A DNA stretch of 27,154 nt from a virus (lineage: Duplodnaviria; Caudoviricetes): positions 1-27,154 of the IMG/VR virus record IMGVR_UViG_3300012352_000657. One strand, written 5' to 3'. Shown in pieces: positions 5,419-17,530 of this stretch (positions are counted from its first letter, which is position 1; the number at the start of each line of letters is the position of its first letter). The notes beneath the pieces are model-generated. The model was not told where the DNA came from and ran no database searches. It saw nothing but the letters and a program-made list of their open reading frames with translations. Made by a program: the position numbers and the translations under genes.

Positions 5419-5812
5419 CGAGTTTGAACTTGGTGAAAATACTCACAAAGAAATTTATGGATTTGTTTATCTAATCACTTGCAAAAAGACTAATAAACAA
5501 TATATTGGTAAAAAGTTCTTTTGGTCAAGTAAAACAAAAACAATTAAAGGCAAGAAAAAAAGATCTAAAGTAGAATCAGATTGGAAAGATTACTTTGGAT
5601 CTAATAAAGTTCTCATTGAAGACGTAAAGGTTAATGGGAAAGATAATTATACTCGCGAGATCTTGCACTTATGTAAGACTAAAGGCGAATGTAATTATTT
5701 AGAAGCATACGAACAATTTACTCGCAAAGTATTAATTGGTGAAGATTATTACAATGAGTGGATTATGGTGAAAGTTCATCGCTCGCACATTAAAGGTTTA
5801 CAACGAGCATAA
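5396..5812 (+). CDS. GIY-YIG nuclease, T4 endonuclease II (DenA)-like
   Basis: YGFVYLIT...QYIGKK, ESDWKDYFGS, REILHLC and YYNEWI motifs. Confidence 0.8.
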   Translation: MTWMMNGNEFELGENTHKEIYGFVYLITCKKTNKQYIGKKFFWSSKTKTIKGKKKRSKVESDWKDYFGSNKVLIEDVKVNGKDNYTREILHLCKTKGECNYLEAYEQFTRKVLIGEDYYNEWIMVKVHRSHIKGLQRA

Positions 5813-5825
5813 CATGTGATATAAT
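5796..5825 (+). promoter_or_regulatory. Early-type promoter upstream of rnh
   Basis: GTTTACAACGAG...TGTGATATAAT. Confidence 0.85.
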
Positions 5826-13165: not shown

Positions 13166-13278
13166 TTTTATTAATAACTCTAATCAAATAATATTATAGG
13201 TACAAGTACCTATATTAACGAAATTTATTGATACATAATATTGATTACTTTTTTTAATTACTCTATAAAGGAAATGAA

Positions 13279-13848
13279 ATGAAAACAGTTGGACAAAAAT
13301 TAGATGCATTCAATCTTACGGGCGTAAAGCCAGGACAGACAGGCGAGTTCTTTGACATCAATGAAAAATCTTTTGAAGGCAAATGGAAGATTATTGTTTA
13401 CTATCCAAAAGACTTTACGTTTGTGTGCCCTACGGAAATCGTAGCGTATGATAAGTTATTCCAAGACTTTGAAGACCGTGATGCAGTATTACTTACTGGC
13501 TCAACAGATAACGAATTCTGTAAAGTAGCATGGCAAGCTTCTCATGAAGATTTGAAAAAGATTCGTCATATTCAATTTGCTGACACACAAAGAGAAACGA
13601 CATACGATGAAGCAAGTAATCGTTATGTTCAAGGTAGTTTAGTAGAACAGTTAGGCGTATTCTTTAATCCAGCAGGTGCAGCACTTAGAGCGACATTTAT
13701 CGTTGATCCTGATAATGTTATTCAACACGTTACAGTAAACAACCTTAACGTTGGTCGTTCACCAGAAGAAACACTACGTGTTCTTGACGCTTTACAAACA
13801 GGTGAGTTGTGTGCTTGTTCACGTAAAATTGGTGGAGAGACTCTATGA
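13279..13848 (+). CDS. ahpC: Peroxiredoxin AhpC
   Basis: YPKDFTFVCPTE, ALRATFIVDP, VGRS.EE.LR, GELCAC. Confidence 0.95.
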   Translation: MKTVGQKLDAFNLTGVKPGQTGEFFDINEKSFEGKWKIIVYYPKDFTFVCPTEIVAYDKLFQDFEDRDAVLLTGSTDNEFCKVAWQASHEDLKKIRHIQFADTQRETTYDEASNRYVQGSLVEQLGVFFNPAGAALRATFIVDPDNVIQHVTVNNLNVGRSPEETLRVLDALQTGELCACSRKIGGETL

Positions 13849-14357
13849 GTTGGGTTGACCAAATAAAAGAGGTATTACCAGAATATGCAAAAGACACTAA
13901 GCTCAATCTTGATAGCGTTATTAATCGCAGCACCTTGGACAGTGGTGTCGCTAACGCCTGTGCACTTGCGGCAGCAATGGCAACAGGTAACGGAAAACTC
14001 GTTTCTTTTATTCAGTCAAGTTTGGAGGATACCAAAGAGCGAGACGCAGCGTTAACAGCTGGTTCTATTATGGCTATGAATAACGTTTGGTATCCATTCG
14101 TTGAGATGGCTGAAGATGAGCGATTAACTGGTTTACCAGCACAATTACGTATGAACGCTATTGCAGCGCATGGTGGAACTACTAAAGCTAACTTTGAAGC
14201 GTATTCACTTGCAGCTTCTATTGTTGGTAAGTGTCACTTCTGTGTTAAAGCACACTATGAAACATTGAAGCAAGAAGGTTATAGTGTTGAGCAATTGCGT
14301 GATGTTGGTCGTATTGCATCAGTTATTAATTCAGTAGCAAAAGTGTTGAATAGTTAA
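13845..14357 (+). CDS. ahpD: Alkyl hydroperoxide reductase AhpD
   Basis: YAKDTKLNL, MAMNNVWY, LRMN, CHFCVKAH. Confidence 0.93.
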   Translation: MSWVDQIKEVLPEYAKDTKLNLDSVINRSTLDSGVANACALAAAMATGNGKLVSFIQSSLEDTKERDAALTAGSIMAMNNVWYPFVEMAEDERLTGLPAQLRMNAIAAHGGTTKANFEAYSLAASIVGKCHFCVKAHYETLKQEGYSVEQLRDVGRIASVINSVAKVLNS

Positions 14358-14362
14358 ACGAT

Positions 14363-14377
14363 TCGTATATATAATAT
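14363..14377 (+). promoter_or_regulatory. Second promoter class (-10 only, late-like), copy 1
   Basis: TCGTATATATAATAT, identical at 15716-15730. Confidence 0.55.
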
Positions 14378-14380
14378 TAC

Positions 14381-14461
14381 ATGAAAACAATACTCACAAC
14401 TCTGGTAAAAACTAACGCAATGTTATTAGCAACATGGCTATGTAGAGGCGTCCAGAGTTAA
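14381..14461 (+). CDS. Putative 26-aa attenuator leader peptide
   Basis: MKTILTTLVKTNAMLLATWLCRGVQS*. The last codons overlap a potential antiterminator arm. Confidence 0.55.
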   Translation: MKTILTTLVKTNAMLLATWLCRGVQS

Positions 14462-14489
14462 TGTAATACGTTTTAAACGAATAAAGACT

Positions 14490-14528
14490 AACCCTGGAAC
14501 CTAAAAAGTTTCAGGGTTTTTTGTTTTT
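14490..14528 (+). terminator. Rho-independent terminator immediately upstream of the tRNA cluster
   Basis: AACCCTGGAAC-ctaaaaa-GTTTCAGGGTT followed by TTTTGTTTTT. Confidence 0.85.
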
Positions 14529-14530
14529 AT

Positions 14531-14612
14531 GCCTCAGTGGCGCAAACAAATGGAAGACGCGGCTGTTCAAGAGACAGTTAGGTTACGGGTTCGAATCCCG
14601 TCTGAGGCACCA
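14531..14612 (+). tRNA. Atypical tRNA-Leu-like gene (anticodon AAG by stem register, CAA in an alternative register)
   Basis: Acceptor GCCTCAG/CTGAGGC with ACCA. T arm ACGGG-TTCGAAT-CCCGT. Anticodon arm GCTGT-TCAAGAG-ACAGT. Confidence 0.75.
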
Positions 14613-14617
14613 AAATT

Positions 14618-14647
14618 ATGTACAACGAGCGATAGGTGTGATATAAT
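14618..14647 (+). promoter_or_regulatory. Early-type promoter upstream of tRNA-Trp
   Basis: ATGTACAACGAG...TGTGATATAAT. Confidence 0.85.
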
Positions 14648-14658
14648 ATTAGTTCAGG

Positions 14659-14733
14659 TTCTCGATAGTGTTAACGGTAGCACGTTGGTCTCCAAAACCA
14701 AAGGTTGCGGTTCGAATCCGTATCGGGATGCCA
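14659..14733 (+). tRNA. tRNA-Trp(CCA)
   Basis: TTGGT-CT CCA AA-ACCAA, GGTTCGAATCC, 3' GCCA. Confidence 0.9.
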
Positions 14734-14743
14734 ATATATAATT

Positions 14744-14773
14744 GTTTACAACGAGTCATTGTTGTGATATAAT
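14744..14773 (+). promoter_or_regulatory. Early-type promoter upstream of tRNA-Asp
   Basis: GTTTACAACGAG...TGTGATATAAT. Confidence 0.85.
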
Positions 14774-14786
14774 AGTATTACATTGT

Positions 14787-14863
14787 GGAGTGGTAGTTCA
14801 GTTGGTTAGAATATCGGCCTGTCACGCCGAGGGTCGCGGGTTCGAGTCCCGTCTACTCCGCCA
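14787..14863 (+). tRNA. tRNA-Asp(GTC)
   Basis: GGAGTGG/CTACTCC acceptor, TCGGC-CT GTC AC-GCCGA, CCA end. Confidence 0.96.
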
Positions 14864-14886
14864 AAGATTTTTAACGTGAGGATAAT

Positions 14887-15075
14887 ATGGCAGCTGTAAA
14901 GAAAAAAGGTAAATCACCAACACATACAAAAACTGGTAAAGTTCGTTTGTATGGTTTAAACGTAGCAGCATTAAATAAAATGTTAGAGAGTGAAAGTAAG
15001 CCTAAGGTAAAAGCAAAGATTAGAAATGCGATTGTGCGTAGAACACTTACGCAACAGGCACCAGTACTTTTATAA
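14887..15075 (+). CDS. Small basic hypothetical protein
   Basis: SD GAGGA. Lys-rich, TKTGKVRL.GLN motif. Confidence 0.7.
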   Translation: MAAVKKKGKSPTHTKTGKVRLYGLNVAALNKMLESESKPKVKAKIRNAIVRRTLTQQAPVLL

Positions 15076-15087
15076 TATAACAGTAAT

Positions 15088-15163
15088 TCCTCGATAGCTC
15101 AGTCGGTAGAGCGCCGGACTGTTAATCCGTAGGTCCCTGGTTCGAGCCCAGGTCGAGGAGCCA
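15088..15163 (+). tRNA. tRNA-Asn(GTT)
   Basis: TCCTCGA/TCGAGGA acceptor, CCGGA-CT GTT AA-TCCGT, CCA end. Confidence 0.96.
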
Positions 15164-15343
15164 TAATTGAGAATGTGAGCGAAAGAAATAGGAATCCCAA
15201 CTGTTAGGGGAGATAACTATCCTAGCAATATCGCATCCATCATCGGAGATAGTCTATCATCCCAAAGGTAGAATGAAAGCGTGAGGTCTAGGAGATGGGT
15301 TTATAAAGCCATCTTAAACACATAACAGTATTCTCAATTATGG
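15161..15343 (+). ncRNA. Candidate structured ncRNA inside the tRNA array
   Basis: Perfect 14-bp terminal inverted repeat CCATAATTGAGAAT/ATTCTCAATTATGG enclosing several hairpins. No convincing ORF. Confidence 0.55.
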
Positions 15344-15348
15344 TATTT

Positions 15349-15424
15349 GCCCCTTTAGCTCATCTGGTAGAGCAACTGATTTGTAATCAGTAGGTGGTCT
15401 GTTCGAGTCGGACAAGGGGCACCA
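15349..15424 (+). tRNA. tRNA-Thr(TGT)
   Basis: GCCCCTT/AAGGGGC acceptor, ACTGA-TT TGT AA-TCAGT, ACCA end. Confidence 0.95.
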
Positions 15425-15431
15425 AGTATTA

Positions 15432-15508
15432 GGGCCTATAGCTCAGTTGGTTAGAGCAGAGGACTCATAATCCTTTGGTCGTAGGTTCGAGTCCTACTGG
15501 GCCCACCA
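15432..15508 (+). tRNA. tRNA with CAT anticodon, most likely tRNA-Ile2 (lysidine)
   Basis: GGGCCTATAGCTCAG start typical of Ile2. GAGGA-CT CAT AA-TCCTT. Lacks initiator features. Confidence 0.88.
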
Positions 15509-15735: not shown

Positions 15736-15909
15736 GTAAGTAGTAATACTTACACGCAAAAGGTCTCAAAGAAGACCACAATGAATTTGGGACACACCCG
15801 AATCGGTAGCGGCGACGTATCACCGTTAGTCTTGACATTTGTCAAGCAATAGAAGGCGGTGAGCGCTTGCCAGTACTACTGACATGTGTTCCTCGCTATT
15901 TTTAAATTC
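15736..15909 (+). ncRNA. Candidate structured 5' leader or cis-regulatory RNA of the accessory operon
   Basis: GNRA hairpin GTAAGTA-GTAA-TACTTAC plus nested stems GGGACACA/TGTGTTCC, GGTAGCG/CGCTTGCC, TCACCGTT/GGCGGTGA and CTTGAC/GTCAAG. Confidence 0.6.
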
Positions 15910-15939: not shown

Positions 15940-16500
15940 ATGGCTGAATATACAAGTTTCGTTATGGATCCATTCTACGCACTATCACGTGAAGTAGAAG
16001 CAACAAAGACCAAAGTAGCAGACAGCGTCTTTGAGAACTATAAACTCCAAGTAGCACAAACAAACGACATCAATAATCGCGCTATGCAAGTTGCATTGCA
16101 TGACTCAACTGCTTTGGCAAATCTAAAGCAGCAAACCGCTGACGCCGTTGTACAGACTATGTTGGCCGCCGCACGCACTGATGCAGCAGTAGGCGCAACA
16201 GCAGGTCTTACACAACGTATGTTGATGGAAGAATCATATCGCACTCGTGATTTGATTAATGGTTTGAACACTCAGAACTTAAACACAGCATTGATCAACC
16301 AAAACACAGCCTTAGTTGGTGGTGGTCTTGGTTACAATCAACTTGGTTTAGCTTATGGTGGCTTAAATTCTGCTTACCAATCTGCTAACTTGAGCAGCGC
16401 TGTTAATGCAATCGGTAGTCAAGTTTCTGGTCAACGTTTGGTTAATACTGGTACATACACCGGTAATACACAAACTCAAACACCTACTAACGTTCTTTAA
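15940..16500 (+). CDS. Ala/Gln/Asn-rich hypothetical protein, paralog 1
   Basis: SD AAGGA before ATG 15940. Aligns end to end with 16512..17066. Confidence 0.85.
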   Translation: MAEYTSFVMDPFYALSREVEATKTKVADSVFENYKLQVAQTNDINNRAMQVALHDSTALANLKQQTADAVVQTMLAAARTDAAVGATAGLTQRMLMEESYRTRDLINGLNTQNLNTALINQNTALVGGGLGYNQLGLAYGGLNSAYQSANLSSAVNAIGSQVSGQRLVNTGTYTGNTQTQTPTNVL

Positions 16501-16511
16501 GGAGATAAATC

Positions 16512-17066
16512 ATGGCTGACTCATTCATGATGGATCCATTCTACGCTCTTTCAAGAGAGATTGAATCTACAAAGACTAAAGTAGCTGACTCTGTATTCGA
16601 AAACTACAAATTGTCAGTAGCTCAAACTAATGATATTAACAACCGTGCTATGCAAGTAGCGTTACACGACACTGCAGCATTTGCTGATCTTAAGCAACAA
16701 ATTGCTAATAGTGTTGCTGAAACAATGTTGGCCGCAGCTCGTACCGATGCTGCTATTGGTCAAACTGCTTCATTGACACAGCGTATGTTGATGGAAGAAT
16801 CAGCACGTACACGCGAGTTGATTAATGGTTTGAATACACAAAACTTGAACACTGCTCTTATTAATCAAAACACAGCCTTAGTTGGTGGTGGTCTTGGTTA
16901 TCAAGGTCTAGGTTTAGCTTATGGTGGTTTGAACACTGCAGTTCAAACTGCAAATCTTGCTAGTGCAACTAATGCTCTTCAAAGTCAAATCCAAGATCAA
17001 AGTTTAGTTAATACAGGTACAATGTCAGGTAGCGAACAATCTCAAACTCCAACTAACGTAGTTTAA
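16512..17066 (+). CDS. Ala/Gln/Asn-rich hypothetical protein, paralog 2
   Basis: SD AAGGAG. Shared blocks MDPFYALSRE, AQTNDINNRAMQVALHD and LINGLNTQNLNTALINQNTALVGGGLGY. Confidence 0.85.
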   Translation: MADSFMMDPFYALSREIESTKTKVADSVFENYKLSVAQTNDINNRAMQVALHDTAAFADLKQQIANSVAETMLAAARTDAAIGQTASLTQRMLMEESARTRELINGLNTQNLNTALINQNTALVGGGLGYQGLGLAYGGLNTAVQTANLASATNALQSQIQDQSLVNTGTMSGSEQSQTPTNVV

Positions 17067-17076
17067 GGAGAATGAT

Positions 17077-17274
17077 ATGTTTGCAAGATTTGGTGGATAC
17101 GGCCGTCCGTATCTAGCAGCAGGCATTGGCTATCCGTATTACGGTGGCTATGGTTACGGTAACCCATACTGTGGATTCGGCTACGGTGGCTGCGGCTACG
17201 GTGGCTATGGTGGTTATGGTGGTTATGGTGGCTGGGGTCGTGGTTACGGTTATGGATATGGATACCCATATTAA
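17077..17274 (+). CDS. Gly/Tyr-rich low-complexity peptide
   Basis: SD AAGGAG. About 27 Gly and 18 Tyr in 65 aa, GGY repeats. Confidence 0.8.
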   Translation: MFARFGGYGRPYLAAGIGYPYYGGYGYGNPYCGFGYGGCGYGGYGGYGGYGGWGRGYGYGYGYPY

Positions 17275-17284
17275 TTAATAGGTA

Positions 17285-17316
17285 AGCGAATCTACCTATT
17301 AATGGGTGGGTTCGCT
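17285..17316 (+). other. Intercistronic hairpin
   Basis: AGCGAATCTACCTA-ttaa-TGGGTGGGTTCGCT, 14 bp with G-U pairs, no U tail. Confidence 0.65.
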
Positions 17317-17338
17317 CCTAATACAAGGAGTAAAAGAA

Positions 17339-17530
17339 ATGATTTATAGTCCAATATACTTTAGAAGTTATGGATTTCCATACTTTAATCCATCGTTTGG
17401 ATTTGGATTTACTGGATATGGAATTGGCGTTAACGCAATTGGTAGTCAATTTTCAAACCAAAGTTTAGTTAACACTGGAACATATACAGGTAGTTCACAA
17501 ATTCAATCACCAACTAATATTTGGGGATGA
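17339..17530 (+). CDS. Aromatic/Gly-rich 63-aa protein sharing the C-terminal motif of the two paralogs
   Basis: SD AAGGAG before ATG 17339. VNAIGSQFSNQSLVNTGTYTGSSQIQSPTN. Confidence 0.8.
   Translation: MIYSPIYFRSYGFPYFNPSFGFGFTGYGIGVNAIGSQFSNQSLVNTGTYTGSSQIQSPTNIWG

Follow-up and report, generated by a model that had tools for sequence, protein, structure and literature searches.

The Locus and Its Phage Setting

The window, meaning the whole stretch of DNA that was analysed (27,154 nucleotides), is a 27-kb contig from an uncultured large phage and constitutes the whole of its own assembly. By our reading, its gene content is T4-like and includes ribonucleotide reductase, a PhoH-like protein, exonucleases, and a ClpP-like protease. 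The peroxiredoxin pair ahpC and ahpD (13279-14357, + strand; Pfam AhpC-TSA and CMD) is located upstream of a short leader, which is followed by six tRNA genes in 14531-15508. Five of them were called by ARAGORN, all on the + strand: tRNA-Trp (CCA, 14659-14733), tRNA-Asp (GTC, 14787-14863), tRNA-Asn (GTT, 15088-15163), tRNA-Thr (TGT, 15349-15424), and a tRNA with the anticodon CAT (15432-15508), which is called Met but looks Ile2-like. The remaining gene, the first of the array, was detected by Rfam only. As the terminator scan returned 0 terminator-like sites in the interval from ahpD to the leader, the ahpCD transcript likely also ends at the leader terminator.

Several further elements surround the array. 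Upstream of ahpC, the stretch at 13180-13240 is A/T-rich and contains an inverted repeat, which presumably resembles an OxyR-type site. Near ahpD in many related phages (L004, L013, L024, L027, L029, L033, L070), there is an ORF of 23-24 codons with its own terminator, which we liken to PqqA. Within the tRNA array, a Lys-rich ORF of 62 aa at 14887-15075 matches no family. Four relatives of this ORF directly precede tRNA-Thr(TGT); at L200 and L202, it seems that the frame continues into the tRNA gene. In the 1.3 kb examined upstream of these four loci, the leader has no counterpart. Downstream of the array, a G+C-richer non-coding stretch at 15760-15900 follows a promoter-like site, has no Rfam match, and is possibly a structured RNA. 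Two tandem paralogous ORFs of ~185 aa, the first of which has no Pfam or PHROGs match, are followed by short Gly/Tyr-rich ORFs and then by collagen-like or fibre-like genes (15940-17530).

Anatomy of the Leader

The sequence-only reading of this locus proposed a leader-peptide attenuator composed of a promoter-like site, an ORF, an antiterminator, and a terminator, and all four were found at the positions that it had given. The sigma70-like promoter (14346-14375, + strand; 10/12) has its -35 hexamer inside the end of ahpD. Sigma70-like sites are equally frequent in shuffled sequence (23 found vs 22.6), so the promoter match is weak when taken alone. The -10 hexamer ends 5 nt before the ATG of the leader, which is not preceded by a Shine-Dalgarno-like motif, and the start is predicted to be that of a leaderless mRNA. 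A leaderless-like promoter spacing occurs in 9/22 leaders of the family described below, compared with 4/32 genes of the window. The leader ORF (14381-14461, + strand) has 26 codons, is rich in Leu and Thr, contains a single Trp at codon 19, and encodes the peptide MKTILTTLVKTNAMLLATWLCRGVQS, which matched no Pfam or PHROGs family. With 14 distinct residues against 13.6 expected, its diversity is ordinary, which rules out an all-amino-acid design for this particular leader.

The antiterminator strand (segment 2; 14451-14460, + strand) overlaps the final codons of the ORF together with its stop. As had been claimed, it forms 9/10 Watson-Crick pairs with 14489-14498, at -7.2 kcal/mol. This is the sole such + strand site in 27 kb, and the chance of a 9/10 site is ~0.002 for a target zone of 30 nt and 0.006 for one of 110 nt. 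Taken by itself, the window locus gives moderate evidence for the antiterminator, with a shuffle p of 0.04 and a rank of 0.15 in the swap test. An A/U-rich linker (14462-14488, + strand) separates the ORF from the intrinsic terminator, and the distance from stop to terminator is 29 nt. The terminator itself (14490-14528, + strand) consists of segments 3:4 (stem 14490-14518) and a U-tract that runs to 14528; the full stem has an energy of -14.8 kcal/mol (fold z -2.9), and the core, at -12.8 kcal/mol, is stronger than the antiterminator. The follow-up folding additionally revealed an element that was absent from the sequence-only reading. This candidate anti-antiterminator (segment 1; 14398-14405, + strand) can form 8/8 pairs with 14452-14459, at -8.8 kcal/mol (p 0.025 at the window locus). 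The first tRNA gene starts 3 nt past the U-tract, with no promoter-like site between them. The tRNA genes thus have a leader in which a short ORF precedes an intrinsic terminator, which is the arrangement of leader-peptide attenuators.

Searches for known or homologous elements returned little. No T-box or other Rfam cis-regulatory RNA reached its gathering score over the leader, the best E-values being those of ncr1575 (E 0.079) and mir-7918 (E 0.093), both far below thresholds. Two DNA patterns retrieved no close homologue of the exact leader from viral contigs, and the 29 loci returned by a metagenome scan were all unrelated. When the window, L015, and L006 leaders were compared with cultured phages by blastn, only short tRNA or chance pieces were matched, so these three queries provide no model phage. 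Six RNA runs contained 6-7% of the query words.

Modelled Folding of the Leader with a Ribosome in Place

The constrained-folding model assumes that a ribosome covers -15/+12 around the A site and that the polymerase, standing at the U-tract, holds the last bases. In the absence of a ribosome, or with one placed between codon 22 and the stop, the terminator core is predicted to form at 0.76. A ribosome placed at codons 4-13 gives 0.90-0.97 for the antiterminator and at most 0.04 for the terminator. At codons 15-21, the terminator returns to 0.63-0.76, with segment 1 re-pairing around the ribosome; such re-pairing, which is a product of the model, may be sterically unrealistic. In the model, a ribosome that has arrived at the stop covers the antiterminator strand and leaves the terminator free, and the same geometry is found in 23/25 family leaders. 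At full equilibrium, the terminator forms at 0.99 whatever the position of the ribosome. Since the terminator always wins at equilibrium, any switch has to be kinetic and must act co-transcriptionally.

A Family of Leaders before Phage tRNA Genes

Among 80 viral loci linked to ahpD, most have something else downstream; a like element was found at L006, L015, and L049, and by eye at L001. The family was gathered not through ahpD but by a terminator pattern, in two scans (the first covering 30/64 parts), which yielded at least 144 records in addition to the window. The 145 records comprise 113 unique leaders, which fall into 55 clusters by shared 8-mers. Of these clusters, 25 have tRNA genes within 1 kb downstream, 16 do not and served as controls, and 14 were set aside since they carry too little downstream DNA. 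The arrays were followed to 1.5-2.5 kb.

The proposed geometry is strongly associated with tRNA genes. A significant antiterminator is present in 19/25 tRNA-linked clusters and in 3/16 controls (Fisher p 5e-4), and the best pairing site ends within -30 to +10 nt of the stop in 23/25 compared with 4/16. An ATG ORF of 20-60 codons that ends 20-36 nt before the terminator occurs in 24/25 tRNA-linked clusters (1.4 expected) and in 5/16 controls; over the 24 leaders with this ORF, the distance from stop to terminator is 21-34 nt. The covariation check proposed for regions upstream of phage tRNA arrays revealed that the alternative pairing is kept and is locus-specific: the duplex with a leader's own terminator arm has -13.7 kcal/mol, whereas that with a swapped arm has -9.9 kcal/mol (p 5e-5). 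For the control loci, the two values are -8.1 and -8.0 kcal/mol (p 0.42). With a further terminator pattern, which gave 56 clusters, the antiterminator was found in 2/3 tRNA-linked, 0/37 unlinked, and 0/16 short clusters; three tRNA-linked clusters are too few for an out-of-sample test of codon matching. A GTDB scan added 59 loci, seven of which passed the switch test, and three of these seven precede tRNA genes. The candidate anti-antiterminator is not a general property of these leaders. Segment 1 is significant in only 4/23 of them, so a universal segment 1 is ruled out.

The family also carries information about the ORF. The frame is open in 69/69 members of 24 clusters (L123 was left out, and nine members need GTG or TTG starts). 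For 33 close pairs (spanning tree, <25% divergence), 18 of which come from one cluster, the pooled pN/pS amounts to 0.39, a value that the peptide-guided alignment may bias downwards. The kept frame, the in-frame insertions and deletions, and this pN/pS are indirect signs that the leader ORF may be translated. Trp is present in 21/23 leaders (10.2 expected), and 11/23 use 19-20 amino acids.

Strain Variation and the L006 Relative

The leader was found in contigs of all four DNA runs (4/4), which come from three studies. Among the variants listed from these runs, the ORF differs at no fewer than seven positions, two of them synonymous and five non-synonymous, and Leu5 is replaced by Phe in all four. 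In the same set, the start, Trp19, the antiterminator, the stop, and the terminator stem are unchanged. Run X4 has 9+1+11 = 21 extra bases after codon 20, and by hand reading the frame remains open; the same run has 14404 G>C, which weakens segment 1.

The 41-codon leader of L006, which uses all 20 amino acids and heads an array of 20 tRNAs, can be aligned with that of the window. Identity amounts to 71% of columns, with gaps of 24 and 21 nt, and the latter coincides with the site of the X4 insertion. At one position of the pairing register, an A-U pair of the window corresponds to G-C in L006, a double change that affects both the antiterminator and the terminator helices. Since the gaps are in frame, the window leader, which is 15 codons shorter, is a shorter in-frame relative of a 20-amino-acid leader. 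The length change was presumably a deletion from an L006-like leader.

The First tRNA and the Extent of the Proposed Gating

The first gene of the array (14531-14612, + strand) is an atypical tRNA that scores 39.7 bits with Rfam and is misfolded by ARAGORN even at a low threshold. By its D-arm and discriminator, we take it to be of the Leu class. Its anticodon is ambiguous and may be read as AAG in a 7-nt loop with C33 (the Rfam register) or as CAA in a 9-nt loop; if it is CAA, the leader ORF has no TTG codon. The gene, with its long D-loop, short variable arm, and non-canonical anticodon loop, is kept in strains, and the strain change 14562 G>A converts a G.U pair of the anticodon stem into A-U. 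No relative of this tRNA was found among the fetched loci, and related phages carry short-armed Leu tRNAs of 74-80 nt.

The caution of the sequence-only reading that tRNA-Trp and tRNA-Asp have their own promoters was justified. Strong promoter-like sites with an extended -10 precede both genes (14619-14647, 10/12, and 14745-14773, 11/12, + strand) and bypass the switch. From the leader promoter to 14619, there is no + strand promoter-like site, so the first tRNA would be reached only by readthrough, and no other gene of the array depends on the switch alone. With four to five of the six tRNAs also behind stronger promoters of their own, any gating is partial. Since the array contains no + strand terminator-like site, readthrough could nevertheless contribute to the output of all six genes. 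Arrays of the family often contain internal promoter-like sites. The sites at 5797-5825, 14619-14647, and 14745-14773 share a block just after the -35 hexamer as well as the extended -10; a weaker trace of this block is seen in the leader promoter and in L006, and the sites possibly represent a phage promoter class.

Codon and Amino-Acid Matching to the Downstream tRNAs

The leader codons had been listed correctly, but the statement that they match five of the six downstream tRNA types proved uninformative, since 49% of 1596 overlapping 25-codon segments of this phage's own genes match as many. This count was discarded as a statistic. Strict codon matching gives 6/25 in the window leader, and 30% of the background segments do as well. 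At the level of amino acids, 13/25 residues match, which is in the top 4% of the background, and in the sensor region, where a stall leaves the antiterminator free, the match is 12/18 (p 0.005). In these counts, Leu was added by hand and the CAT tRNA was taken as both Met and Ile; the assignments of the first tRNA to Leu and of the CAT tRNA to Ile are our assumptions, made by resemblance. With Met counted, the window leader fits its own tRNA set best of 21 loci. The idea of a tRNA-matched sensor is thus upheld in part: the enrichment in amino acids is modest but real, whereas the strict codon match is at chance level.

Over the 21 loci with at least three tRNA types, the sensor regions match their own arrays at 0.494, compared with 0.413 after permutation (p 1e-4). 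The p value becomes 5e-4 when the window is omitted and 0.076 when the three best loci are dropped as well; a similar trend is seen outside the sensor region (p 0.063). The use of isoacceptors is slightly enriched in the family (89/150 vs 76.5 expected, z 2.1) and is not enriched at the window (3/5 vs 2.7 expected). Some of the family thus has real amino-acid matching, which at the window is modest. Of the loci examined, L268 is the most clearly matched; it lies outside the 21-locus set, on a 375-kb contig that is binned as Bacteroidota and has phage-like flanks. In its interval 1392-2360, the leader consists of His, Ser, Tyr, or Leu in 15/23 residues (p 1e-4), and the tRNAs downstream are His, Ser, Ser, Tyr, Leu, Leu, and Leu. 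L268 is the only new locus of the GTDB scan with at least three tRNA types; the antiterminator test at this locus returned p 0.07. As 11/23 leaders use 19-20 amino acids and others are biased and matched, two designs seem to coexist, namely near-complete amino-acid leaders and biased leaders matched to their arrays.

Proposed Mechanism and Its Alternatives

The anatomy of the leader, its mutually exclusive pairings, and the conservation of a fixed geometry over many phage tRNA arrays are established at the level of sequence. On this basis, the element is best read as a translation-coupled leader-peptide transcription attenuator of the classical type with tRNA genes as a new target, a reading to which we give a probability of roughly two in three. 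The family comparison and the strain variation support it well. Translation of the leader would start on a leaderless mRNA. Once a ribosome has come to the end of the 26 codons, it would sit on the antiterminator strand, and the terminator could fold. If the ribosome is slowed before that point, the antiterminator would stay exposed and could trap the 5' arm of the terminator, so that RNA polymerase could enter the tRNA genes. According to the model, stalls at codons 4-13, and possibly up to ~19, would favour the antiterminator. The signal would be slow decoding, weighted to Leu, Thr, Ile, Asn, and Trp codons and not strictly matched to the phage anticodons; in this respect, the attenuator of the sequence-only reading is retained, and its sensor tuned to five of the six tRNA types is only partly supported. 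The useful trigger would be a shortage of functional tRNA caused by host nucleases, RNA decay, or high demand, because extra tRNA would not cure amino-acid starvation. The local output would consist of on/off control of the atypical first tRNA and a top-up of the five other tRNAs.

A broader proposal is that phages use leader peptides to take stock of the tRNA pool codon by codon, and that this inventory evolves together with the tRNA cassette behind it, with long leaders of all 20 amino acids heading full arrays and short, biased ones heading partial arrays. The window leader would then have arisen from a 41-codon relative by two in-frame deletions and a shift towards Leu, Thr, Ile, Asn, and Trp, retuned to six tRNAs, and host tRNA-cleaving defences would switch on their own antidote. 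We consider this proposal less likely than not.

The features that make the window copy look weak could also indicate a vestigial switch, in which case the family would be functional and the window leader would be decaying, its control reduced to one defective tRNA-like gene and the working tRNAs transcribed from internal promoters. The loss of 15 codons relative to the L006 homologue, the non-canonical anticodon loop of the first tRNA, the 10/12 and 11/12 promoters downstream, and the five non-synonymous substitutions out of seven among the variants listed fit such decay. However, both length changes are in frame, the start, Trp19, the antiterminator, the stop, and the terminator stem are unchanged among the variants listed from four runs, the first tRNA has a strain change that improves a pair, and internal promoter-like sites are a common property of the family arrays; we find decay unlikely. 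Slightly less credible is the view that sensing is done by the nascent chain, in the manner of the TnaC-like and antibiotic-dependent arrest peptides. The switch would then report ribosome arrest by a ligand or drug instead of tRNA supply. The constraint on the peptide (pN/pS 0.39) and the frequency of Trp speak for it, but the peptides are unrelated between clusters, and Trp stands 7-37 residues from the end, so that, together with the lack of a Pfam or PHROGs match, the conserved motif at a fixed stall distance that characterizes TnaC-like leaders is not seen here. Moreover, some leaders of the family have a composition that follows the tRNA set behind them, and the window lineage has accepted many substitutions as well as an insertion of seven codons.

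The codons might also be uninformative, with the leader acting as an infection-stage timer that opens when bulk translation is uncoupled from transcription, through host shut-off or an altered polymerase speed. Leaders with nearly all amino acids would suit a sensor of any slowdown; the residue diversity of the window leader is ordinary. We hold a timer to be improbable, given that amino-acid matching to the own locus beats permutation and that the use of isoacceptors is slightly enriched. Finally, the hairpin could be only the terminator of ahpCD, with the ORF and the complementarity arising by chance. The lack of another terminator-like site after ahpD and the shuffle p of just 0.04 at this single locus are compatible with that view, but it is largely refuted by the family tests and has very little chance of being correct: in the flanks examined, ahpC or ahpD lies upstream in only 2/25 tRNA-linked clusters, the family geometry and the locus-specific pairing are far beyond chance, and the first tRNA follows the U-tract directly, with no promoter-like site of its own.

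Relation to Known Systems

Leader-peptide attenuation is a mechanism of the enterobacterial type, known from the leaders of amino-acid operons (trpL, hisL, leuL, pheL) and from the multivalent leaders thrL and that of ilvGMEDA. The leader pheL is counted among these attenuators (PMC3082878). The phage leader shares with these elements a short ORF, an antiterminator under the 3' end of the ORF, a terminator ~30 nt past the stop, and, in the window, a candidate 1:2/2:3/3:4 layout. Unlike them, it controls phage tRNA genes and not biosynthetic enzymes, has no tandem run of one control codon, and has a predicted leaderless start; moreover, segment 1 is not general in the phage family. The mechanism as such is thus already known from enterobacteria, and what is likely new is its target, tRNA genes in a phage.

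Closer in logic is pheM-pheST, in which attenuation feeds back on the translation machinery itself through the supply of charged tRNA. There, the target is a synthetase, one amino acid is monitored, and the system belongs to the host chromosome. General translation-stress uORF attenuators, represented by whiB7/wblC and by leaders of ABC-F genes such as lmrC, likewise open a terminator when a ribosome is slowed on the uORF, but they respond to antibiotics, control resistance or regulator genes, and have no tie to the content of downstream tRNAs. T-boxes may also control tRNA genes. The passages of PMC11404447 contain no statement of such control. In the titles and starts of abstracts searched, an attenuator of tRNA genes or of phage tRNA arrays is not mentioned; the supplements of RNA-motif surveys (PMC5737381, PMC11109978, PMC8632094, PMC6429828) might list one, and no uORF or attenuation passage occurs in the main text of PMC5737381.

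It has long been asked why phages carry tRNAs. Phage tRNAs can offset tRNA-cleaving defences, and by analogy this is likely the purpose of the switched phage tRNAs. According to PMC11555353, a phage tRNA-Tyr offsets PtuAB, and the rescue depended on a strong phage tRNA promoter; control in that phage is by promoter strength, and "attenuat" occurs 0 times in the main text. The Anabaena trn operon resembles the proposed phage system in that accessory tRNAs are switched on under translational stress, but it is controlled by the DNA-binding repressor TrcR and not by an RNA switch (PMC10272220). If transcription of phage tRNAs is wired to decoding speed, the codons of the leader state which shortage the phage expects. 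Classical attenuation would then extend to tRNA genes and viruses and would provide a compact sensor for damage to tRNA, and a reporter cassette of 150 nt would suffice to test the depletion or defence hypothesis. Because internal promoters bypass the switch, the window copy is a weaker showcase than L268, L106, or L120; its in-frame length variation among strains is useful for studying the retuning of leaders.

Two bacterial loci from the GTDB scan have the same geometry, one with a leader that contains a run of Cys (L259) and one with an Ile/Thr-rich leader (L284). The genes downstream are presumably enzyme genes, and both loci look like ordinary amino-acid attenuators. One cluster without downstream tRNAs (L108, L177, L199) has strong complementarity to the terminator arm upstream of it; its 17-codon ORF ends 7 nt before the terminator, and the element may be a different switch.
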